DNA from: Deltaproteobacteria bacterium
GTDB taxonomy: Bacteria > Desulfobacterota > GWC2-55-46
Reading direction: 5' to 3'
Length of the DNA: 64,000 nucleotides
Assembly: GCA_016234935.1 (NCBI GenBank)
Contig: JACRNL010000011.1
Span: 129,472 to 193,471, forward strand
In this document: one piece after another, positions 51,210 to 62,403 of the stretch
How the letters are laid out: the number at the start of each line of letters is the position of its first letter
How positions within the stretch are numbered: the first letter of the stretch is position 1
Made by a program: the position numbers and the translations under genes
Notes under the pieces: model-generated
Seen by the model: the letters and a program-made list of their open reading frames with translations, nothing else
Database searches by the model: none
Told to the model about the DNA's origin: nothing

Positions 51210-51995
51210 ATGATAACATTGCCGCCGCTTCGATCCCGGATTTTCAGATTCAAGCGCCTCCATGCCGTAATCCTTTTAAGCCTGTTTTTTTTGCGCCCTG
51301 CATCCGTCCTTGCAGGCTTCAGCGTGTCGCCTTTGACAATTGAATTCGACAAGAAGGTAAAAAGCGCTCTGATTTCGATAGAGGCCCAGGGGCCGGAAAA
51401 CGTCAATCTGCAGATGAGGGCCGTCCTGTGGACCCAGGACGCCGACGGCAAGGACGTCTACACGGACACATCCGACCTTATCTACCTCCCGAAATTAATG
51501 ACGGTCAAGGGCAATAAATCGAGGGCGCTGAGGGTTGGCACCACGCAGTCCACTATCGTGGATAAGGAAAAGTGTTACAGGCTGTTCATCGAAGAGATAC
51601 CCGCCCCCAGGAAGGATGCCGAGGGCCCGAACGTCAACATATCATTCAGGTTTGCTCTGCCGGTCTATATAAAACCGGTCAAGGAGATTTACGATTTAAA
51701 GATAGAAAAGGCGGAAATGTCGGGTAAGGGCGTGATTGTTCTTGTCAGGAATTCCGGCAACGCGCATCAGAGGGTATTTACCGTTGACATCAGGGGCAAG
51801 GATTCCGGCGGCAACGCTCTCATGTCCGCCCGGCTCAACGGATGGTATGTCCTTGGCGGCAGTTCAAGTAAATATTTTGCGGAGATACCGAAAGACAGGT
51901 GCAATGAATTGAAGACGATTGAAGTCGAAGTCAATACCGACAGAGGGCCGATTAAACAGGATATCGCGATAGACGCCGCCAAGTGCCAGCCTTAA
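51210..51995 (+). CDS. PapD-like periplasmic pilus chaperone
   Basis: Signal peptide, then FSVSPLTIEFDKKVKSALISIEAQGPENVNLQMRAV... (chaperone N-domain pattern). SD aggagcagg. Confidence 0.75.
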   Translation: MITLPPLRSRIFRFKRLHAVILLSLFFLRPASVLAGFSVSPLTIEFDKKVKSALISIEAQGPENVNLQMRAVLWTQDADGKDVYTDTSDLIYLPKLMTVKGNKSRALRVGTTQSTIVDKEKCYRLFIEEIPAPRKDAEGPNVNISFRFALPVYIKPVKEIYDLKIEKAEMSGKGVIVLVRNSGNAHQRVFTVDIRGKDSGGNALMSARLNGWYVLGGSSSKYFAEIPKDRCNELKTIEVEVNTDRGPIKQDIAIDAAKCQP

Positions 51996-52010
51996 ACTGC
52001 GGGGGGTTTT

Positions 52011-54398
52011 TTGACAGGCCGGCTAATGGACAAAATTGCCGCATTAAAATACGGCCTGCTGATACTGGCTTCTTTAGTTTTTTTTTGCGTTCCTGCTTTT
52101 TCAGAGGAATCGGTGGTCGTTGTCCTTAATGTAAGGCTCAACATGGTGGACAAGGGTGATTTTTACATGATGGCCGCCCCTGACGGGGACTATCTTGTGA
52201 AGACCGAAGAGCTTAAAAAGATGGGTTTCAAGGCCCCGCGGGGCGCGGCTTCCATTATAGAAGGCGCCGAACATATCTCCCTGAAGTCCATGCAGGGCGT
52301 CAGGTTCGTCTACAACGAGGACGCCGTCGCCCTCGAAATCACCGCCGAGCCGTCGCTTCTTGGCAAGGTTATCATTGATTACGCCGGGACCATCTACAAG
52401 GAAAATGTCGAATACACCGGCAGCGGCTTCAGCGCGTTTTTCAACTACAAGCTCAACTATAACGCAGGCATGGATTTTAAATACGAAAGCTCCGTCATGA
52501 CAAATGAAGCGGGGGTGCGCGGCGCCGGATTTCTGCTAAAGACGGATACCGTGTATACGGACACAAACAGCGGCGAAACATTCCGAAGACTCCAGAGCAA
52601 CGTCACCTACGACAGAAGGAATGAACTGCAGCGCATAACGGGCGGCGACTTCTTCGCCTCTTCCGGCGACTTCGGCACCACCTTGAACATGGGCGGCCTC
52701 AGCATAGCCAAGATATACAGGATGGACCCCTATTTTATAAAGCAGCCGCTTTTTAACGTTACCGGCCAGATGGCGACTCCATCGGAGGTCGAGGTCTATC
52801 TTGACGGCGCGCTTATAAGGAAGGAAAAGCTGGCGCCGGGAGAGTTTGAGCTAAGGAATATATCGGCATACAGCGGGGCGGGCAATTATGAGATACTTAT
52901 CAGGGACTCATATGGAAGAGAGCAGAGGATGAGGTATCCGTTCTATTATGCCGATCAGCTCTTAAAGAGCGGTCTGCATGAATACAGCTATAACGCCGGC
53001 CTCATCAGGAAGGATTACGGGGTAAAGAGCGCGGAGTACGGCTCGCCGGCATTTTCCGCGCTGCACAGGTACGGTTTCAGCGACATCCTTACGGTCGGCG
53101 CCGGCGCCGAAGCCTCCGGCGGGACCTATGTGCTTACCCCCCAGATTTCTTACGGCATGGCTGATATAGGCGTATTGGACGTGGATCTGTCCGGCAGCGA
53201 GGACGAGACAATGGGAGAGGGCTGGGCCGGCCTGGCGAGTTACAGGTATGACGGAAGACCCATAAGCTCGAGGGTTATCTTCAGGCAATTCAACAAGGAG
53301 TATATGCGGCTGAGTTCAGCTCTTACCGGCGTGAGGACAAAGTTCGAGATAGGAGCCGGCATAAGCTACTCGCCGGGAAATCTCGGCGCCGCAAGCCTTG
53401 ATTATACCGCCACCAAGATCTACCATGGAGCGGAGAGGAGGACGACCTCCACGACCTATTCCATAAGCCCGTTCAGAGAGGCCATGCTCTCTTTTACATT
53501 AAGGAACAGGAGGACGAAGGCGCCTGAGGGCGATGAATCGGCCAATGAGTTGTTTGTCAATTTCAGCTATTATCCGTGGAAGGATATAAGCGCGTCCGTA
53601 AGCTGGCAAAGGTTAAAGGACGTTGACACGGAGACGGCCCAGATACAGAAGCCTGCGCCGACGGGAGAGGGCTACGGCTACAGGATGGCCGCCGCGAGGG
53701 TGGACGGCCCGGCGGAGCGCAGCACCACGGTTTCCCCGTACGTTCAGTATAACGGCCGCTACGCCAGGATTGTCGGTGAATTTAACGGGATCTACGGCGC
53801 CGCCGGCCAACGCTCGGAAAGGTCTGATCTGTCGGTTGCAGGAGGCATCGGATACGTCGGCGGCAGGCTGGGCCTCAGCCGCCCGATATTAGACAGCTTT
53901 GCCGTCGTGAAGGCGGACGGGCTGAAGGACGTGTCAGTAATGCGCAGCGGCCAGGAGATAGGCAAGACAGACTCTGCCGGCTACGCCTTCGTGCCTGAGC
54001 TTGTTTCATATGTTAATAATACGATAAATCTCGATATAACGGCCATCCCCATGGATTATGCCGTTCATGACGCCGGAAGGACCATAAATCCGGCTTTGAG
54101 GAGCGGCACGTATCTGGACTTTAATATAAGGAAGATACAGGCCGTCACCGGAAGATTAAGGATTAAATCAAAAGACGGCTCGATAAAAGACGCCGAGTTC
54201 TACGAGGTCAGCATGACGGTCAAGGGAGAGGAGCTGCTTTTACCTACCGGCAAGGCAGGAGAGTTTTATATTGAAAACATCCCTGCCGGGCAATACACGG
54301 CGGCTGCTCGCTACCCTGGCACGGCTTGCGCGTTTGAGATTGTAGTCCCGGAGAGCATGGAGACTATTGTGGATTTGGGAGAGGTATTCTGTGAATAG
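52011..54398 (+). CDS. Outer-membrane fimbrial usher
   Basis: 795 aa, signal peptide, beta-rich throughout. Positioned chaperone-usher-pilin. TTG start per the track; alternative ATG at 52026. Confidence 0.7.
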   Translation: MTGRLMDKIAALKYGLLILASLVFFCVPAFSEESVVVVLNVRLNMVDKGDFYMMAAPDGDYLVKTEELKKMGFKAPRGAASIIEGAEHISLKSMQGVRFVYNEDAVALEITAEPSLLGKVIIDYAGTIYKENVEYTGSGFSAFFNYKLNYNAGMDFKYESSVMTNEAGVRGAGFLLKTDTVYTDTNSGETFRRLQSNVTYDRRNELQRITGGDFFASSGDFGTTLNMGGLSIAKIYRMDPYFIKQPLFNVTGQMATPSEVEVYLDGALIRKEKLAPGEFELRNISAYSGAGNYEILIRDSYGREQRMRYPFYYADQLLKSGLHEYSYNAGLIRKDYGVKSAEYGSPAFSALHRYGFSDILTVGAGAEASGGTYVLTPQISYGMADIGVLDVDLSGSEDETMGEGWAGLASYRYDGRPISSRVIFRQFNKEYMRLSSALTGVRTKFEIGAGISYSPGNLGAASLDYTATKIYHGAERRTTSTTYSISPFREAMLSFTLRNRRTKAPEGDESANELFVNFSYYPWKDISASVSWQRLKDVDTETAQIQKPAPTGEGYGYRMAAARVDGPAERSTTVSPYVQYNGRYARIVGEFNGIYGAAGQRSERSDLSVAGGIGYVGGRLGLSRPILDSFAVVKADGLKDVSVMRSGQEIGKTDSAGYAFVPELVSYVNNTINLDITAIPMDYAVHDAGRTINPALRSGTYLDFNIRKIQAVTGRLRIKSKDGSIKDAEFYEVSMTVKGEELLLPTGKAGEFYIENIPAGQYTAAARYPGTACAFEIVVPESMETIVDLGEVFCE

Positions 54399-54411
54399 CG
54401 CATTTAAAATT

Positions 54412-54882
54412 ATGTTCATAAATTGGATGCAGTTTTTATTGTTTGCCCTTGCGCCCTTTGCGGGTGATAGGGCGTATGCCGCCGCCCCAACCTGTACGTT
54501 GACCGCGACGCCAATAAACTTCCCCCTGTATGACTCTTCCGTTGCCGTCACCGCCACCGGTACCGTCACGGTGTCATGCTCAAGCGGCAACCCCGCGTAT
54601 ACGGTATCCCTCGGGCCAAGTTCTGGGAGCAACTCCGTAAACCCAAGGGCGTTAAAGCACCAGACAGTCCCGGATACGCTGACTTATACCATCAGGACTC
54701 CGGCGACGACACAGGGCACCCCTGCCGGAGCGCTCTGGGGCGACGGCACACTCGGCACAATCGTCGTGACTGAAAGGTTCAGGTTGTCGGCTGTGCTTAC
54801 CATGACCGGCGATATCCCGGCCGGACAGGATATGACGTACGGTCTTTACGCTGACAGCATCACGGCTACCGTGACGCCTTAA
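54412..54882 (+). CDS. Spore coat U domain pilin / tip subunit (CsuE-position)
   Basis: Signal peptide, Cys pair (PTCTL...VSCSSG), C-terminal YADSITATVTP. Start at ATG 54412 after the usher stop. Confidence 0.7.
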   Translation: MFINWMQFLLFALAPFAGDRAYAAAPTCTLTATPINFPLYDSSVAVTATGTVTVSCSSGNPAYTVSLGPSSGSNSVNPRALKHQTVPDTLTYTIRTPATTQGTPAGALWGDGTLGTIVVTERFRLSAVLTMTGDIPAGQDMTYGLYADSITATVTP

Positions 54883-54975: not shown

Positions 54976-55005
54976 TTGTCTTATTCCCTGAAATAATGGT
55001 AAAAT
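54976..55005 (+). promoter_or_regulatory. Sigma70-type promoter (TTGTCT - 17 nt - TAAAAT) for the small ORF
   Basis: Seen directly. Confidence 0.45.
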
Positions 55006-55041
55006 ATATGTATAAGATGTTATATCAAGGAGGTGAGATGT

Positions 55042-55152
55042 ATGTATCTCGATTGGCATGATAAAGACATCAGGCACATGGTGGAGGCGTACTATATTAC
55101 GGCTCTGGCGCTTACTCTCTTGATGCTTATCGGCGGATGGTATCTGTTATAA
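55042..55152 (+). CDS. 36-aa single-TM hydrophobic peptide MYLDWHDKDIRHMVEAYYITALALTLLMLIGGWYLL. Below the ORF-track size cutoff.
   Basis: Consensus SD aaggagg 7 nt upstream of ATG 55042. Own promoter and a downstream hairpin + T6 at 55183-55210. Confidence 0.5.
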   Translation: MYLDWHDKDIRHMVEAYYITALALTLLMLIGGWYLL

Positions 55153-55182
55153 AGCGCTTGATTCCATGTGATCTGTGCTTGG

Positions 55183-55210
55183 AAAAAGGGGGAGATTCCC
55201 CTTTTTTCTT
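55183..55210 (+). terminator. Putative intrinsic terminator after the small ORF (aaaaa gggg-gagatt-cccc tttttt)
   Basis: Seen directly. Short 4-5 bp GC stem. Confidence 0.4.
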
Positions 55211-55343
55211 ATCTTTTTCAAAGCCCGTCCTCCATTCCAGCGTAACATCCCGATTTTACGGACAAATATCCCATAGCCGCGGTTTAGCCCGTCTTGACGA
55301 ACCCGAAAATCAAGCTATCCTTTTTTAAAAGGAAGCGCGGGCA

Positions 55344-56945
55344 ATGGATAATGCGGGTGAGGCCGTCTATTACAGAAATAAAGTTCGCGGCAGAGCCGGC
55401 GTCAGGCAATGGATATTTTCAACCGACCATAAGCGCATAGGCGTTTTATACCTCGTCTCGGTTCTGGCCATGTTTTCGAGCGGCGTAGTCCTCGGCGTTC
55501 TTATGAGGCTGGAACTTCTAACGCCCGGGCCGACCCTGATGGGGCCGCAGACCTATAATTCCATGTTCACGCTTCACGGCGTGATAATGCTCTTTCTCTT
55601 TATCATCCCTGCCGCCCCCGGTGTGTTCGGAAACTTCTTCCTGCCCATACTCATCGGCGCAAACGACGTGGCCTTTCCGCGCCTGAACCTCCTTTCATGG
55701 TGGTTTTACATGGCAGGCGCGGCCATTGCCGTGGCTTCTATTTTAATCGGCGCGGGGCCGCCGGACACGGGCTGGACGTTTTACGCTCCGTACAGCCTCT
55801 TCACCGGGCAGGACGTTTCATTGGCCCTTTTTGCCGTCTTCGTGCTCGGCCTTTCGTCGGTGCTGACGGGCATAAATTTTATCGTCACAGTGCACAACAT
55901 GCGCGCGCCCGGCATGGGCTGGTTCAGGATGCCTCTGTTCGTGTGGTCTATCTACGCCACGGCGTGGATACAGGCCCTTGCCACGCCAGTTGTCGGCACG
56001 ACCTTTTTACTGGTGATAGCCGAAAGGTTTTTCGGCATAGGCGTATTCGATCCTGCAAAGGGAGGAGACCCGATACTGTATCAGCACCTTTTCTGGATAT
56101 ACTCCCATCCGGCGGTCTATATAATGATACTGCCGGCAATGGGGATTATCACCGAGATAATCCCCGTATTTGCCCGAAAGACGGTCTTCGGCTACCGGGC
56201 GATAGCGTATTCAAGCCTTGCGATAGCAGGGGTGGGCTCCCTCGTGTGGGGCCATCACATGTTCGTAAGCGGCTACTCCTACACGGCAGGGGTGCTCTTT
56301 TCGTTCTTTACCTTCCTCGTGGCCATACCGAGCGCGGTAAAGGTTTTTAATTGGATCGCCACCCTTCATAAAGGCTCGATAGTCTTTTCCACCCCCATGC
56401 TCTACGCCTTTTGCTTCATCTTCCTTTTTTCCATCGGAGGGCTGACCGGGCTTATGCTCGGCGCGCTTTCTATGAACGTCGTTTTGCACGGCACGTATTT
56501 TGTGGTGGGCCACTTCCACTACGTCAAGTTCGGCGGCGCGGGGTTTGCCTTTTTCGCGGGGCTTCATTATTGGTTCCCTAAGATGTCCGGCAGGCTCTAT
56601 AGCCGGATGAGGGCCAATATCGCGCTGTTTCTGTTGTTTGCCGGCTTTAACATGTTGTACTTTCCGATGTTCATCCTCGGCATCGAGGGCATGCCGAGGA
56701 GATACTTTGACGCTTTGCCGCAGTATCATTTCTGGCAGGCAGTGTCCATCGCGGGCTCGTGGGTGCTGGCGGCAGGCATTATACTGATGCTGGCCAATCT
56801 CGTCCACGCGCTTTTCAGGGGAGAAAAGGCCCCTGAAAACCCGTGGGCAGGGGCGACGCTTGAGTGGACTATCCCGTCACCGCCTGCCCATGAGAACTTC
56901 GTGAAAATCCCTGAGATAAGGCGCGGGCCGTATGATTACCGGTAG
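55344..56945 (+). CDS. ctaD: Cytochrome c oxidase subunit I (heme-copper oxidase, A-type)
   Basis: 533 aa, 12 TM. Conserved His ligands and WFFGHPEVY-equivalent region (FWIYSHPAVYIMILP), GHHMF. Confidence 0.9.
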   Translation: MDNAGEAVYYRNKVRGRAGVRQWIFSTDHKRIGVLYLVSVLAMFSSGVVLGVLMRLELLTPGPTLMGPQTYNSMFTLHGVIMLFLFIIPAAPGVFGNFFLPILIGANDVAFPRLNLLSWWFYMAGAAIAVASILIGAGPPDTGWTFYAPYSLFTGQDVSLALFAVFVLGLSSVLTGINFIVTVHNMRAPGMGWFRMPLFVWSIYATAWIQALATPVVGTTFLLVIAERFFGIGVFDPAKGGDPILYQHLFWIYSHPAVYIMILPAMGIITEIIPVFARKTVFGYRAIAYSSLAIAGVGSLVWGHHMFVSGYSYTAGVLFSFFTFLVAIPSAVKVFNWIATLHKGSIVFSTPMLYAFCFIFLFSIGGLTGLMLGALSMNVVLHGTYFVVGHFHYVKFGGAGFAFFAGLHYWFPKMSGRLYSRMRANIALFLLFAGFNMLYFPMFILGIEGMPRRYFDALPQYHFWQAVSIAGSWVLAAGIILMLANLVHALFRGEKAPENPWAGATLEWTIPSPPAHENFVKIPEIRRGPYDYR

Positions 56946-56961
56946 ACGCGGCGAGGAAGAT

Positions 56962-57573
56962 ATGGGCAAAACAGGCGTTAGAGACGATGCGCGCGGCGCG
57001 GCGGCTCGCCTGGGCATGTGGCTTTTTATAGCCACGGAGGCCTTTTTCTTCCTGGCTCCGCTTCTCCTTTATGCCGCGTATCGATACAGGTATGCATATG
57101 ATTTTCGCGCCGCGGGAGGAGAGCTTAACCTTTTTACCGGCGCGGCCAACACCGCCGTGCTTCTTACGAGTTCCCTTACCATGGCCCTCGCGGTCAATGC
57201 GGGGCAAAGGGGGGATAAGAGGCTTACGGCTGTCCTGCTCGCGGCGACGATTATCCTTGGGTCTGTCTTTCTCGTGATTAAGTATTTCGAATGGACAGCC
57301 AAGATATCCCACGGCATCTATCCAAATTCCGAAACGTTTTCAGGCCGCGCGCGCGGCGAGGTGATATTCTGGGGGCTTTATTTTTTTATTACCGGCCTTC
57401 ACGGCCTCCACGTGTTCATCGGCGTATGCCTTTTAACGGTCATGCTTTTTATGAGGCTTGCCAACGCGTCCGGAGGGAGATACCCGGCGAGGCTTGAGAA
57501 CTGCGGCCTCTACTGGCATGCCGTAGACGTCATCTGGATATATATTTTCCCGTTTTTCTATCTTATGGGATAG
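56962..57573 (+). CDS. ctaE: Cytochrome c oxidase subunit III
   Basis: GLYWHAVDVIWIYIFPFFYL signature. About 5 TM. Start at ATG 56962. Confidence 0.85.
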   Translation: MGKTGVRDDARGAAARLGMWLFIATEAFFFLAPLLLYAAYRYRYAYDFRAAGGELNLFTGAANTAVLLTSSLTMALAVNAGQRGDKRLTAVLLAATIILGSVFLVIKYFEWTAKISHGIYPNSETFSGRARGEVIFWGLYFFITGLHGLHVFIGVCLLTVMLFMRLANASGGRYPARLENCGLYWHAVDVIWIYIFPFFYLMG

Positions 57574-57579
57574 GAGATT

Positions 57580-57861
57580 GTGATGGAGAGAAAGGCTGAT
57601 TATAAGAGCCTTATTATTGTTTGGGCGGGACTAATATTGCTCACGTGGCTTTCTGCCGGCGTCTCCGGCGCCGGCCTTGCGGCGGAGGCGCGTGTGGCTG
57701 TGCCGCTGCTTATCGCAATGCTCAAGGCGTCTTTGGTCTTTTACTTCTTCATGCGCTTCAGGGTGGGCGGGGAGATATTCTGGGTGGTGCTTCCGGCAGG
57801 GCTGATAACGGTAATAATCATTACGCTTCTTGTATTTTCCGACGTGGGTTACAGGTATTGA
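57580..57861 (+). CDS. Prokaryotic cytochrome c oxidase subunit IV (CoxD-like), 93 aa, 3 TM
   Basis: Size, position after subunit III and three hydrophobic helices. Confidence 0.65.
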   Translation: MMERKADYKSLIIVWAGLILLTWLSAGVSGAGLAAEARVAVPLLIAMLKASLVFYFFMRFRVGGEIFWVVLPAGLITVIIITLLVFSDVGYRY

Positions 57862-57906
57862 AGACGCATTGACATTTACGCCGCTAAAAGGCCGGCGGTA
57901 AAAGAG

Positions 57907-58524
57907 GTGCTTTTAAGAATGCTGTTAAGCCAGGCAAGCAATATAGGAAAACTCACTGACGGCGCGTTCATGGCAATTACTGCCATTTGCGTGGCGCTTT
58001 TCCTGACAATAAATATCATTATGCTGTATTTCGCCGTTAAATACAGGAGATCCAGGCATCCGCAAAGCGCGGATATTGATGGAAGCGTTCTGCTGGAGCT
58101 TGCATGGACGGTCATCCCGGCGGCCCTTGTCGTGTTCATGTTTTACCTTGGGCTTAAGGGCTACGCCATCCGGAAGGACGCGCCCGGAGACGCGCTCGCG
58201 GTGAATGTGCGCGGGCAGATGTGGTCATGGATATTTCAGTATGCCAACGGCAAGGAAAGCAGCGCTCTGGCATTGCCCCTTAACAGGGCCGTGAAGTTCA
58301 ATCTGACCTCCGGCGACGTCATCCACAGCTTTTTCATCCCTGCGTTCGGGATAAAGGGGGACGTGGTCCCGGGCAGGCAAAACACCCTCTGGGCCGTCCC
58401 GATTGAAAAGGGTTCTTTTGACGTCTTTTGCACGGAATACTGCGGCGCCGGACATTCGATTATGCTGTCAAAGGCTGTTGTGATGGACGAAAAGGATTTC
58501 GAGGAGTGGTATGGGGCGCGGTGA
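57907..58524 (+). CDS. ctaC: Cytochrome c oxidase subunit II (CuA cupredoxin)
   Basis: Two TM helices, then a cupredoxin domain with CuA motif H...CTEYCGAGHSIM. No fused cytochrome c domain. Confidence 0.85.
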   Translation: MLLRMLLSQASNIGKLTDGAFMAITAICVALFLTINIIMLYFAVKYRRSRHPQSADIDGSVLLELAWTVIPAALVVFMFYLGLKGYAIRKDAPGDALAVNVRGQMWSWIFQYANGKESSALALPLNRAVKFNLTSGDVIHSFFIPAFGIKGDVVPGRQNTLWAVPIEKGSFDVFCTEYCGAGHSIMLSKAVVMDEKDFEEWYGAR

Positions 58525-58550
58525 GATATTTTCCGGCAAGGTTGAAAAAA

Positions 58551-58625
58551 TGGAGGCGGCGAGCGGACTCGAACCGCTGAATCGCAGTTTTGCAGACTGC
58601 TCCCTTGCCACTTGGGTACGCCGCC
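58551..58625 (-). tRNA. tRNA-Cys (anticodon GCA)
   Basis: Reverse complement folds as: acceptor GGCGGCG/CGCCGCC; anticodon stem GCAGT/ACTGC with loop CUGCAAA; T-arm AGCGG-TTCGAGT-CCGCT; discriminator U73; encoded CCA. Confidence 0.85.
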
Positions 58626-59017: not shown

Positions 59018-59036
59018 AAAAAAAAAGGGGGGGGGG
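59018..59036. repeat. Homopolymeric tract A9G10, 45 nt upstream of the HAMP gene start
   Basis: gaaaaaaaaagggggggggg, seen directly. Confidence 0.9.
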
Positions 59037-59080: not shown

Positions 59081-59689
59081 ATGGGAAAAAAGAAAAAAGA
59101 AGCTTCCGTAATAGACCGTGCCTTCAAGATACGCTTCGGCGTGAAGCTGTGCCTGTTTGCCACGTCGGCGCTTCTGGCGGCGACGGCCTTTGTGTATTCC
59201 GTCACCTCTCAAAAGCTCGGCGGCGGCTATGCCGAGGCTGTCTACACGATAGCAAATCTCAAGGTGAAAATCTTTCCGCTTATCTTCGCTTCGCTCTACA
59301 CGGCAGGGATACTTGCTTTTGCAACTATCTCCATCGCGGTTATCTCCGTATTTTTTTCACACAGGATAGCCGGACCCATCTACCGCATGGAAAGGAGCCT
59401 GGAGGCCATTGAGTCAGGAGACCTCACGACCACGACGAAGCTCCGCTCCGGGGATCAGCTTATGCCTGTTGCCGAGGATATGAACGGGATGGTCAGGGCG
59501 CTTAACCACAGGGTGAAAAGCATGCAAGAAGCCCTCGACGAGATTAAGGGCGACGCCCAAAGGCTTTCGGCCCTTTTGCAGGAAGAAGGACTCGCGGCCG
59601 GAGGCGCAATGGAAAAGGCAGAGGCGCTTAAAGGCGGCGTTGAGAAGCTTAAAAAATCCTCTGTGGTCGTGAAACCGAAGGAATATTAA
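59081..59689 (+). CDS. Membrane protein with 2 TM + HAMP domain + C-terminal coiled coil, no output domain
   Basis: Two TM helices, HAMP-like HRIAGPIYRMERSLEAIESGDLTTTTKL...NGMVRALNHRV, then a helical E/K-rich tail. Confidence 0.65.
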   Translation: MGKKKKEASVIDRAFKIRFGVKLCLFATSALLAATAFVYSVTSQKLGGGYAEAVYTIANLKVKIFPLIFASLYTAGILAFATISIAVISVFFSHRIAGPIYRMERSLEAIESGDLTTTTKLRSGDQLMPVAEDMNGMVRALNHRVKSMQEALDEIKGDAQRLSALLQEEGLAAGGAMEKAEALKGGVEKLKKSSVVVKPKEY

Positions 59690-59690
59690 G

Positions 59691-60494
59691 GTGAAGAAGT
59701 TTTGGCTCATTACGCTCCTGCTGGCGGTTATAGCGCTGTTCGGGGTTTCCGACAGGTTTGTTTCCTCCATATGGCTGAGCTACCACAGTTTCGAGGGCAG
59801 ATGTAATGACTGCCATCTTGTCGTGCCAAAGCCCGGCGAAGGGCCGGGCACGCTTATGAAGAACGTAACCGTCCTTTGCACCTCCTGCCACGCGGAGATC
59901 AAGAATTTTTCGCATCCGGTTGACATGGCGCCGTCCATGCCGGTGCCGGTAAACTTTCCGCTGGACTGGAAAGGGACGGTAACGTGCGTGACGTGCCATC
60001 CCGTCCATGACTACGGACACGGCGAGGCCCATTTAAGGAGCGCTGCGTCGGGCGAGGGGTTTTGCGCGAACTGCCACGGCGATATTGATTCAAAGATGCA
60101 CGCTGCGTCCATCGGCACCGCACACCTATCGGCTTTTCAGGCGGACAGATTCGTAAGGACGCAGGCATCTGTCGATGAGCTTTCCCTTAAGTGCCTCTCC
60201 TGCCACGACTCCCTTGTGGGAAGAGGCGTAGAGGTCGAAAGCAAGGCCGCGACCGAGGGTTACCATGAGGCAAACCAGATAGGGCTTTCTCATCCCATCG
60301 GAGTGTCTTACCTTGAGGCAAAGCGGCTTTATTTTGGCGCGTACAGGGACATTGACAAATTGCCGCCGGAGATACATCTTTTCGGGGGCGTTATAGGCTG
60401 CGGCACGTGCCACGACCCGTATTCAAAGCGGCATTATGAGCTTGTCATGTCGAACGAGATAAGCGCCCTGTGCCTTGCGTGCCATGTAAAGTAG
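59691..60494 (+). CDS. Multiheme c-type cytochrome (7 CxxCH motifs)
   Basis: CNDCH, CTSCH, CVTCH, CANCH, CLSCH, CGTCH, CLACH. Signal peptide. GTG start. Confidence 0.85.
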   Translation: MKKFWLITLLLAVIALFGVSDRFVSSIWLSYHSFEGRCNDCHLVVPKPGEGPGTLMKNVTVLCTSCHAEIKNFSHPVDMAPSMPVPVNFPLDWKGTVTCVTCHPVHDYGHGEAHLRSAASGEGFCANCHGDIDSKMHAASIGTAHLSAFQADRFVRTQASVDELSLKCLSCHDSLVGRGVEVESKAATEGYHEANQIGLSHPIGVSYLEAKRLYFGAYRDIDKLPPEIHLFGGVIGCGTCHDPYSKRHYELVMSNEISALCLACHVK

Positions 60495-61275: not shown

Positions 61276-62403
61276 ATGAGAAAGGCCGTGTATGTATTCA
61301 TGTTGTTGCTTCTTATGGCGCCGGCTTTCGCCGGGACGCTTCATGCGGGCGACTGGCCGATGTTCCTGAAAGACGGGGAGCATTCATCCTATGCCGATGA
61401 CGCGCCCCTTCCGCCGTATGACGTAAAGTGGCGCTTCAGCGCGAAAGGGCCGTTCTATTCCTCTCCCATCGTCTACAAGAAAAAGGTTTTTGCCGGTTCC
61501 TACGACAAAAATATGTATGCCCTTGACGCCGGCACCGGCAAGGTTGTCTGGAGCTTTGTCTCGGAGGACGCTATACTCGGCACTCCTGCCGCGTTCAAGG
61601 ACGCCGTCTACTTCGCCACGAAGGCCGGTAAGGTCTACGCCCTTGCCGTTGACACCGGAAAGCTCATCTGGACCTTCGATGCCGAAGCGGGCGTGATGAC
61701 CTCTCTGCTCGTTGTGGACGATATCGTCTATTTCGGCGCGCAGGACCTTTATTTATATGCCGTTGACGCTAAGAGCGGCAAGCGCCTCTGGCGCCTGCGC
61801 GTGCCTGACACAAGCATATACAGCGGGATATATTCCTCTCCGGTGTATTATGGCGGGTCGGTGTTGGTTTCCGGGAAGAACGGGATCATATACTCGGTCG
61901 AGGCCAAGAGCATGGCGAGGAATTGGTCTAAGAGGGTTATGGCCGCAATGTACTCTTCCCCTGTCGTAAAAGACGGCGTAGTATATGTTTCCACCTACGG
62001 GAAAAAGATGTTCGCGCTGGACGTCAAGACAGGCAAGAACGTCTGGCAAAGGGAGCTTGAGGGCGAGTTTACGTATGCCTCGCCGGTAGTTATAAACGGC
62101 CGCGTATATCAAGGGCTTAAAAACGGCCATATAATGGTGCTTGATACGGCCAAGGGTCTTGTTAAGGGCAATATAAATCTGGGCGCCGCGGTTGATGCCA
62201 CTCCTGTCGGCACATCTTCCGGCATGCTTTTAGCCGGGTGTGCCGACGGGATGTTTTATGCGCTTGACGCGGCAAGCGGCGCCGTCAAGTGGAAGTTCGA
62301 AACCGATGGGGCCATTCATGCGTCTCCCGCGGTCGCAGGGGACGCCATATACGTCTCCACGGTGGAAGGCAGCCTCTACGCTTTTACGCCGCAAAAAAAA
62401 TAA
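61276..62403 (+). CDS. PQQ-like (BamB-type) beta-propeller repeat protein, secreted
   Basis: Signal peptide. Repeated ...G.VY.G..DG.LYALDA.TGK..W... blades (about 8). Confidence 0.8.
   Translation: MRKAVYVFMLLLLMAPAFAGTLHAGDWPMFLKDGEHSSYADDAPLPPYDVKWRFSAKGPFYSSPIVYKKKVFAGSYDKNMYALDAGTGKVVWSFVSEDAILGTPAAFKDAVYFATKAGKVYALAVDTGKLIWTFDAEAGVMTSLLVVDDIVYFGAQDLYLYAVDAKSGKRLWRLRVPDTSIYSGIYSSPVYYGGSVLVSGKNGIIYSVEAKSMARNWSKRVMAAMYSSPVVKDGVVYVSTYGKKMFALDVKTGKNVWQRELEGEFTYASPVVINGRVYQGLKNGHIMVLDTAKGLVKGNINLGAAVDATPVGTSSGMLLAGCADGMFYALDAASGAVKWKFETDGAIHASPAVAGDAIYVSTVEGSLYAFTPQKK

Follow-up and report, generated by a model that had tools for sequence, protein, structure and literature searches.

A conserved 36-residue predicted membrane protein encoded upstream of a cytochrome oxidase operon in an uncultured deltaproteobacterium

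Background

Small membrane proteins are systematically missed by genome annotation, and several of them have proved to be subunits on which respiratory enzymes and transporters depend or by which they are modulated. A gene of only 36 codons in a contig from an uncultured deltaproteobacterium (JACRNL010000011.1, assembly GCA_016234935.1; GTDB lineage Desulfobacterota, GWC2-55-46) raises the question of what such a protein may be doing directly upstream of a cytochrome oxidase operon: is it part of the oxidase, a toxin, or the partner of some other membrane protein? The gene lies in a stretch of 64,000 nucleotides (positions 129,472 to 193,471 of the forward strand of the contig), here called the window, and plain coordinates in the text are those of the window. 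An earlier note, made from the letters of this DNA, had left two readings side by side, namely a small oxidase subunit or assembly factor and a type I toxin. The comparative analysis described here points, with moderate confidence, to a third and broader answer. The gene would be an independent and strongly expressed unit, and its product a bitopic protein that binds a larger membrane partner and belongs to an undescribed, narrow family.

Orthologues and conservation of the reading frame

The gene occupies positions 55042..55152 of the plus strand, stop codon included (ATG at 55042, TAA at 55150-55152), and encodes the 36-aa peptide MYLDWHDKDIRHMVEAYYITALALTLLMLIGGWYLL. Relatives are present on nine distinct metagenome contigs besides the window, all of them short, which fall into four clusters at 90% identity. 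Six of these contigs (L082, L091, L092, L093, L094 and L095) share 88-92% DNA identity with the window and make up clade A together with it; L094 and L095 were assembled from Hainich groundwater. Lineage B is represented by L088 and lineage C by L089 and L090.

When 1.84 billion cluster representatives were searched exhaustively with phmmer, three matches were obtained, namely the peptide itself and two full-length homologues (37 and 36 aa, 54-56% identity, E-values of 2.6e-5 and 5.3e-5). Four further members were obtained by cluster look-up. L082 was found via CoxI homologues: its CoxI is 91% identical to that of the window, and its DNA is 89% identical over 7.4 kb with the same gene order. 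A 37-aa gene is called in the same place in L082 and encodes MYIEWWHDKDLRHMVEAYYVAVLILTLLMVIGGWYLL, with conservative substitutions and one in-frame codon insertion relative to the window. A word-indexed search with the peptide padded with upstream in-frame codons gave only a self-match, to a Logan contig 100% identical to the window; this type of search is insensitive for such short queries and missed the L082 orthologue. Exact look-ups of the 39-aa version of the peptide that starts at an upstream GTG (see below) and of the window CoxI gave no match. All proteins returned by exhaustive searching are 36-37 aa long (one is mis-started and 46 aa long), which excludes a fragment of a larger protein.

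All nine copies have 36-37 codons and keep the start, the stop and the frame. Pairwise dN/dS values are 0.12-0.27, setting aside two near-identical pairs that are uninformative (L089/L090, where a value of 0.78 comes from only 4 changes, and L091/L092, with no nonsynonymous change). Between lineages, synonymous differences are near saturation (pS of 0.6-0.85) and nonsynonymous differences are about 0.26. The variable sites within clade A are distributed 6/3/12 over the first, second and third codon positions, and several invariant residues are encoded by differing synonymous codons. When the lineages are compared with each other by blastn, the Shine-Dalgarno (SD) sequence and the coding region are all that aligns; the promoter, the untranslated regions (UTRs) and the terminator have diverged past recognition. 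The combination of saturated synonymous sites, a conserved protein and unalignable UTRs indicates that the protein is conserved rather than the RNA. A chance ORF is likewise argued against by the recurrence of the same ORF, with the same signals, in four clusters from independent metagenomes. Judged by these substitution patterns, the reading frame is under purifying selection and is a real gene. Conservation of the frame in related genomes was one of the points on which the earlier note had let its gene call depend, and the intact orthologues on nine contigs, with the dN/dS values given above, uphold that call.

Transcription unit and expression signals

Positions 54976-55219 of the plus strand form a complete, independent transcription unit with a promoter, an SD sequence, an ORF and a terminator, and each element was found where the earlier note had placed it. 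The promoter consists of a -35-like hexamer and an extended -10 element, TGgTAAAAT (54997..55005, plus strand; relatives carry TGGTATAAT). The hexamer, TTGTCT (54976..54981, plus strand), was picked up by a consensus scan and is weak. A spacer of 18 nt separates it from the -10. It reads TTGCCT in the clade A relatives that were read (L082, L091 and L092); lineages B and C lack a conserved hexamer and have only the extended -10 in common with the window. Transcription is inferred to begin close to 55012. Within a 900-nt region, the consensus scan found six promoter-like sites, compared with 1.1 expected from shuffles. A TGnTATAAT-type element was present on the sense strand 42-74 nt 5' of the ATG in 6/6 scanned loci, covering all lineages, and in each locus no other -10 candidate between -150 and +200 matches better (5 of 6 for the TGgTAAAAT of the window).

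The SD sequence, AAGGAGGTGA (55027..55036, plus strand), is a perfect match over 10 nt; the earlier note had described it as near-perfect. The spacing of 7 nt given with that description depends on the base from which it is counted: the ATG lies 5 nt from the last base of the SD and 8 nt from GGAGG. The arrangement GGAGGTGA, 5 nt and ATG shows no variation across 9/9 copies. A mechanical list of ORFs contains a 39-aa version of the gene that starts at an in-frame GTG at 55033, inside the SD sequence; the ATG at 55042 is favoured over it because of the independent gene calls in relatives and the conserved 5-nt SD spacing. An out-of-frame ATG 4 nt upstream of the start opens an ORF of 7 codons (55038-55061; MYVSRLA followed by a stop), which lies 4 nt from GGAGG, is not conserved in L082 and is probably unused.

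Downstream of the gene is an intrinsic terminator (55181..55219, plus strand), consisting of the A-tract/G-run hairpin GGAAAAAGGGGGAGATTCCCCTTTTTTCT (55181-55209, up to 13 pairs) and a T-rich tail. The terminator looks bidirectional. A hairpin and T-run are found 28-45 nt 3' of the stop codon in every lineage, with a stem sequence that differs per lineage. The distance between the stop codon and the coxI start (55344) was measured as 191 nt, in agreement with the 190 bp previously given for the gap to the oxidase operon. Strong and constitutive expression of the unit is probable on the predicted signals.

Folds of the 5'UTR are not conserved across lineages, and their z-scores are mostly near zero. 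In L088 the SD can be hidden in a CCUCC/GGAGG hairpin, with a similar structure possible in L089/L090; the window clade has a short leader in which the SD is open. Sequestration of the SD by the 5'UTR was therefore considered as a family trait and rejected. The whole mRNA folds more stably than shuffled sequences (z = -4.1), which is partly due to the terminator. The remaining long-range pairing involves codons whose conservation is explained by the protein, and L082 has a mismatch there with no compensatory change. Searches of the region against Rfam gave no family above noise; a match to sraA on the minus strand over the terminator (E-value: 0.22, 25.5 bits against a gathering score of 56) was rejected as chance.

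Predicted structure and novelty of the peptide

The 17 N-terminal residues of the peptide are polar and acidic, and according to hydropathy a hydrophobic stretch then reaches the C-terminus. The best 19-residue Kyte-Doolittle window is at residues 18-36 (mean 1.9-3.0) and is the sole hydrophobic segment. AlphaFold2, run on a single chain with a four-sequence alignment, predicts one continuous helix spanning residues 2-35 (mean pLDDT 83). Both predictions agree with the polar N-terminus and single transmembrane (TM) helix that had been read from the letters, and the product is predicted to be a single-TM (bitopic) membrane protein.

The invariant residues are M1, W5, D7, R11, H12, M13 and E15 in the polar part and L24, L26, M28, G31 and L36 in the membrane part. 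The polar motif DW.D...RHM.E shows the strongest conservation in the family. Residues D7, R11 and E15 are spaced i/i+4, and M1, W5 and H12 share one helical face. The C-termini (...GGWYLL, ...GGFFIAL and ...GAIFLL) suggest a TM segment that extends to the last residue, and no charged residue follows residue 15.

Small membrane proteins are recognized by having no more than 50 codons under selection for the protein and one predicted TM helix, and the gene and its predicted product show both features. Regulatory examples that bind larger complexes, such as KdpF, MgtS, AcrZ and the sarcolipin/phospholamban type, are at most 50 aa long, bitopic and non-catalytic, are expressed from their own signals and bind to a transporter or enzyme by helix-helix contact. 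In sarcolipin, as in the 36-aa peptide, the N-terminus is short and polar, and the TM segment after it runs to the C-terminus or nearly so. The peptide differs from these proteins in that it has no sequence relationship to them and in that its family is confined to a few uncultured lineages.

No match for the peptide was found in Pfam or NCBIfam at E-values up to 10. Among all PDB chains, a profile search picked up nothing beyond chance TM matches to the TM helix of NuoA (E-value of about 4), which were rejected as compositional. Searching plasmids and phages by tblastn gave no copies, and neither did scanning viral and JGI metagenome contigs for a degenerate DNA motif; a profile-derived scan of the JGI contigs gave 282 pattern matches, with 0 confirmed. 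Within the searchable literature the motif strings were met only by chance, as runs of letters in two papers on other subjects. The 64-kb window carries a single copy of the gene, as does each related contig. The peptide represents an undescribed and very rare family present in a few uncultured lineages.

The cox operon and its linkage to the small gene

The genes that follow the transcription unit (55344..58524, plus strand) form an A-type heme-copper oxidase operon with the order coxI-III-IV-II. These are coxI (55344-56945), coxIII (56932-57573), coxIV (57580-57861), which encodes a COX4_pro-like subunit IV, and coxII (57907-58524), whose 205-aa product has the CuA motif CTEYCGAGHSIM and the usual COX2_TM domain and lacks a cytochrome c domain. 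A tRNA-Cys gene (58551..58625, minus strand) directly follows coxII. Among the matches listed, the closest named relatives of the window CoxI are from Thermodesulfobacteriota or Deltaproteobacteria metagenome-assembled genomes (72-75%). The operon has a promoter-like site of its own, TTGACG-16-TATCCT (55294..55321, plus strand), separate from the small-gene unit. The site lies within the motif TTGAC[GT]AA[CT]CC[GT]AAAA. In the longer form TTGAC[GT]AA[CT]CC[GT]AAAA(A)TCA, this motif precedes coxI in the window clade and likewise in L090 (~650-680), and the rest of the intergenic region is not alignable; the shared motif suggests that cox has a conserved promoter or operator of its own.

In clade A the small gene is located between a gene for an SCPU (spore coat protein U) subunit and coxI. 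In L090 a 32-aa ORF comes first, followed by the peptide gene and its terminator; 280 nt further on is coxI-III-IV-II, which encodes a short CoxII of the CuA type. The L090 proteins share 78.5% (CoxI), 59% (CoxII) and 45% (CoxIV) identity with those of the window, and the L090 CoxI is closer to that of the window than is any listed database CoxI from outside clade A. This closeness of CoxI indicates that the two operons are orthologous and that the adjacency of the peptide gene and cox is probably ancestral. This adjacency has survived a change of upstream neighbour between clade A and L090. Linkage to cox had been proposed as a check in the earlier note; it is present in clade A and L090 and absent in L088 and L089.

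Alignment of the loci shows coxI-III-IV-II as a block that is present in the window (55153-58625) and absent from the corresponding positions of L088 (2159-2320) and L089 (1394-1600). The operon may be an accessory oxidase cassette beside a tRNA gene. Five other contigs (L083-L087), with CoxI proteins 74-77% identical to that of the window, have a conserved 271-aa gene without a Pfam match directly upstream of coxI. In L083 and L084 a longer CoxII is fused to a cytochrome c domain; the other three contigs do not include coxII. The accessory arrangement of L083-L087 is different from that of the window.

Proposed role and candidate partner

The proposed role of the peptide, on the reading favoured above, is as follows. 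A protein of 36 aa would be too small for catalysis and would dock onto a larger membrane protein, as other bacterial small membrane proteins do. The invariant LxLxMxxG face of the TM helix would provide the docking surface, and the conserved polar N-terminal helix, presented at the membrane surface, would stabilize or modulate the partner. As the gene is directly upstream of cox in two diverged lineages despite their changed upstream neighbours, the adjacent CuA-containing A-type cytochrome c oxidase is the leading and likeliest single candidate for this partner, an assignment that is offered tentatively and falls short of being probable. At the level of gene order the link to the oxidase is not obligatory, and the partner could equally be another membrane complex.

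Several observations weigh against this reading, and in particular against its oxidase component. The small gene is intact and fully equipped, but has no adjacent cox operon, in L088 and L089. Between the 32-aa ORF and the end of the terminator, L089 matches L090 at 91% identity; its sequence then diverges at once and leads into a convergent metallophosphoesterase gene and not cox. In L088 no cox genes follow, and about 65 nt past the terminator lies the 3' part of a minus-strand tRNA gene that is identical at 33/36 nt to the window tRNA-Cys, which lies beyond coxII. When six-frame translations of all 95 loci were searched with the family HMM, no copy of the small gene was found at the other 85 cox loci (CoxI 59-77% identical); the 80 genome loci that were fetched via CoxI at no more than 66% identity, and that have no homologue by tblastn or the family HMM, are too distant to test conservation. 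The strong terminator insulates the small gene from cox transcriptionally. Because the two lineages with cox adjacent are related to each other, the synteny they share may be no more than common inheritance. Chimeric assembly, or cox genes elsewhere in the genomes, may account for the arrangement in L088 and L089. The topology of the peptide is ambiguous: the N-terminal tail has a net charge of -2 to -4 and there is no basic residue beside the TM segment, so the positive-inside rule cannot assign an orientation. Finally, the function is inferred from the anatomy of the gene and its neighbourhood only.

Comparison with known oxidase subunits

A more specific proposal, which is possible but on balance doubtful, is that the peptide is a dedicated small subunit or an assembly/metallation factor of the adjacent A-type oxidase. 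It would attach to CoxI or CoxII within the membrane, where stability, or the insertion of copper or heme, would depend on it. The position of the gene is consistent with this, as it directly precedes orthologous coxI-III-IV-II operons, on the same strand, in clade A and in L090, whose upstream neighbours differ. Known oxidases have single-TM subunits of 34-37 aa (CydX, PMC4325964; CcoM, PMC4742706). The invariant W5, H12 and M13 and the acidic residues of the peptide are candidate ligands, of types typical for Cu(I)/Cu(II). Set against this are the separate promoter and terminator of the small gene, its persistence without adjacent cox in L088 and L089, its absence from the 85 related cox loci and the lack of similarity to CydX, ba3 subunit IIa, CcoM, CcoQ or any oxidase subunit in PDB, Pfam or NCBIfam. 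The position upstream of cox in two diverged lineages speaks for the oxidase-associated subunit suggested in the earlier note; the gene's own signals, the cox-less units and the loci that have cox without the gene speak against it.

Subunit IIa of the Thermus thermophilus ba3 oxidase is 34 aa long and replaces the missing first TM helix of a subunit II that has one helix. Like COX4_pro proteins and the proposed product, it is a small helical accessory component of a heme-copper oxidase. In contrast, the CoxII encoded in the window has the usual COX2_TM domain, and the operon already encodes a COX4_pro-like subunit IV.

CcoM is a 36-aa fourth subunit of the Pseudomonas stutzeri cbb3 oxidase that was seen in the crystal structure (PMC4742706). 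It has the same length as the peptide and a single helix, and it was likewise hypothetical or unannotated, encoded by a stand-alone gene with its own predicted promoter and narrow in taxonomic range (PMC4742706). There is no sequence similarity between the two. CcoM belongs to a C-family (cbb3) enzyme, whereas the neighbour here is an A-family CuA oxidase, and its TM segment is near the N-terminus (Val7-Trp29) and followed by a basic C-terminal tail, whereas the peptide has a C-terminal TM segment preceded by an acidic tail. CcoM is also present in a crystal structure, whereas the peptide is known from genes alone. As CcoM is encoded far from the cbb3 operons and has its own promoter (PMC4742706), the cox-less contexts of the small gene do not refute a role in the oxidase.

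CydX, CydY and CydZ, small subunits of cytochrome bd oxidase, are single-TM proteins of about 37 aa that are linked to a terminal oxidase (PMC4325964); like the peptide, they are easily missed by annotation. Both CydX and the peptide have Y-x-x-W near the N-terminus (here Y2xxW5, with F2 in L089). The full CydX motif, YxxWxxGx15[E/D], is not found in the peptide, which has K or A rather than G at +3 and ends before the E/D position. The cydX gene is located inside a co-transcribed cydABX operon, and 99% of cydX genes are in cydAB operons (PMC4325964). The small gene is instead insulated and next to a heme-copper oxidase rather than a bd oxidase, and no cydAB genes are adjacent in any of its contexts.

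An elaboration of the oxidase proposal, which is unlikely as it stands, would make the peptide a lineage-specific component of the A-type oxidase of uncultured groundwater anaerobes, with a periplasmic Trp-His-Met helix that binds copper. Copper would be bound by W5, H12 and M13 (M1, W5 and H12 being on one face) together with carboxylates and handed to the CuA or CuB sites, or the enzyme would be shielded. Recent loss or relocation of cox would then explain why the operon is variably present next to a peptide gene that has been retained. If correct, the peptide would act as a mini copper chaperone or a subunit anchored in the membrane, and no such component has been described for heme-copper oxidases.

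Type I toxin, RNA and precursor-peptide alternatives

The second reading in the earlier note, a type I toxin, did not hold up well: such an identity is improbable, and the peptide is probably not a toxin of this kind. In a type I system, a small hydrophobic peptide damages the membrane and is restrained by an antisense or nearby small RNA (sRNA). The peptide resembles type I toxins such as Hok, Ldr, Fst, TisB, Ibs and ZorO in having fewer than 70 aa and a single hydrophobic helix and in being encoded by an intergenic gene with a compact, structured mRNA (PMC2887945, PMC8309996). The tight terminator and the stable fold of the whole mRNA are also in keeping with a toxin, as is the CCUC(C) just 5' of the SD that can pair with it in L088 and L089/L090. 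Among the features listed by Fozo et al. (PMC2887945), however, small size and a TM segment are the only ones present; the polar or aromatic-charged C-terminal cluster is missing. Tandem or multiple copies and a plasmid or prophage location are frequent, though not obligatory, in type I toxins (PMC2887945). The small gene is single copy, is not in tandem and has no copies on plasmids, phages or viral contigs, and the peptide does not match any known toxin family.

A promoter for the restraining RNA was not evident either. In no lineage is there a strong opposite-strand -10 overlapping or downstream of the gene (-150 to +200), a result that holds for promoters of this type close to the ORF and not for other promoter types or trans-encoded sRNAs. 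The sole strong minus-strand -10 match is in L082 only, 130 nt upstream of the ATG. The consensus scan gave no minus-strand promoter-like site in L088 and L090; in the window and L082 it gave weak, non-conserved minus-strand sites at the SD/5'UTR that point away from the ORF. The structures of the 5'UTR are not conserved. An open SD, as in the window clade, would be unusual for a toxin; an unobstructed, perfect SD behind an extended -10 is hard to square with a lethal product. The synteny of the small gene is stable and looks vertically inherited. Furthermore, conservation is centred on a specific polar motif and not on mere hydrophobicity, which suggests a specific partner.

It is very improbable that the ORF is incidental and that the locus is instead a non-coding RNA, a cox leader/attenuator or the precursor of a ribosomally synthesized and post-translationally modified peptide (RiPP) or signal: the transcript is short and structured, and a conserved N-terminal part followed by a variable C-terminal part superficially resembles a RiPP leader and core, but no Rfam family matches, near-saturated synonymous sites with a conserved protein and UTRs that cannot be aligned between lineages indicate selection on the protein, a cox leader peptide or attenuator is argued against by units that persist without cox downstream and by the full terminator and separate cox promoter that intervene, and a RiPP is made unlikely by the lack of adjacent modification enzyme or exporter genes in any of the four contexts and by a C-terminal part that is a plain TM helix with no Cys/Ser/Thr-rich core.

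Significance and neighbouring genes

The small gene provides a 36-aa example of a small membrane protein gene from uncultured bacteria that is validated by comparative genomics, with the motif DW.D...RHM.E, conserved expression signals and no name in the databases. The role of oxygen reductases in anaerobes is still debated. If the oxidase is indeed the partner, the peptide would be a new accessory component of the A-type oxidases of anaerobes; if the partner is something else, the gene would still be a well-defined candidate for studies of small-protein function. A false lead has also been removed: cataloguing the locus as a type I toxin is not warranted.

The 32-aa ORF of lineage C (MEKELKKLNIIYDAVTICLTVVMLAGVRFLFS; L089:892-990, L090:2-82) is located about 290 nt upstream of the peptide gene. 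It has a polar N-terminus and a C-terminal TM segment, and its LTVVMLAG resembles the LTLLMLIGG of the family. Only 1/82 nt of this ORF differs between L089 and L090, compared with about 9% of the surrounding DNA. It was not accepted as a paralogue of the peptide (E-value of about 0.8 against the family HMM). In L088 a DedA gene is among the neighbours of the small gene.

Directly upstream of the small gene in the window is a pilus cluster (51210-54882) that encodes a PapD-like chaperone, an usher and SCPU (Csu-type) proteins. The SCPU subunit gene is the most diverged part of the block that is syntenic with L082 (81.5% DNA identity, 27 gapped positions).

On the other side of the oxidase locus, a tract of A9 followed by G10 (59018-59036) precedes by about 45 nt the start codon (ATG at 59081) of a gene for a HAMP-domain protein and is followed by the inverted repeat CCCCTCTTTTCTAAAGAGGGG; it is possibly a slippage-prone regulatory tract. 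Further downstream are genes for a multihaem cytochrome c with paired CXXCH motifs (c7/c3-like; 59691-60494) and a PQQ/BamB-like beta-propeller protein (61276-62403), both of which are consistent with a Desulfobacterota-like anaerobe.

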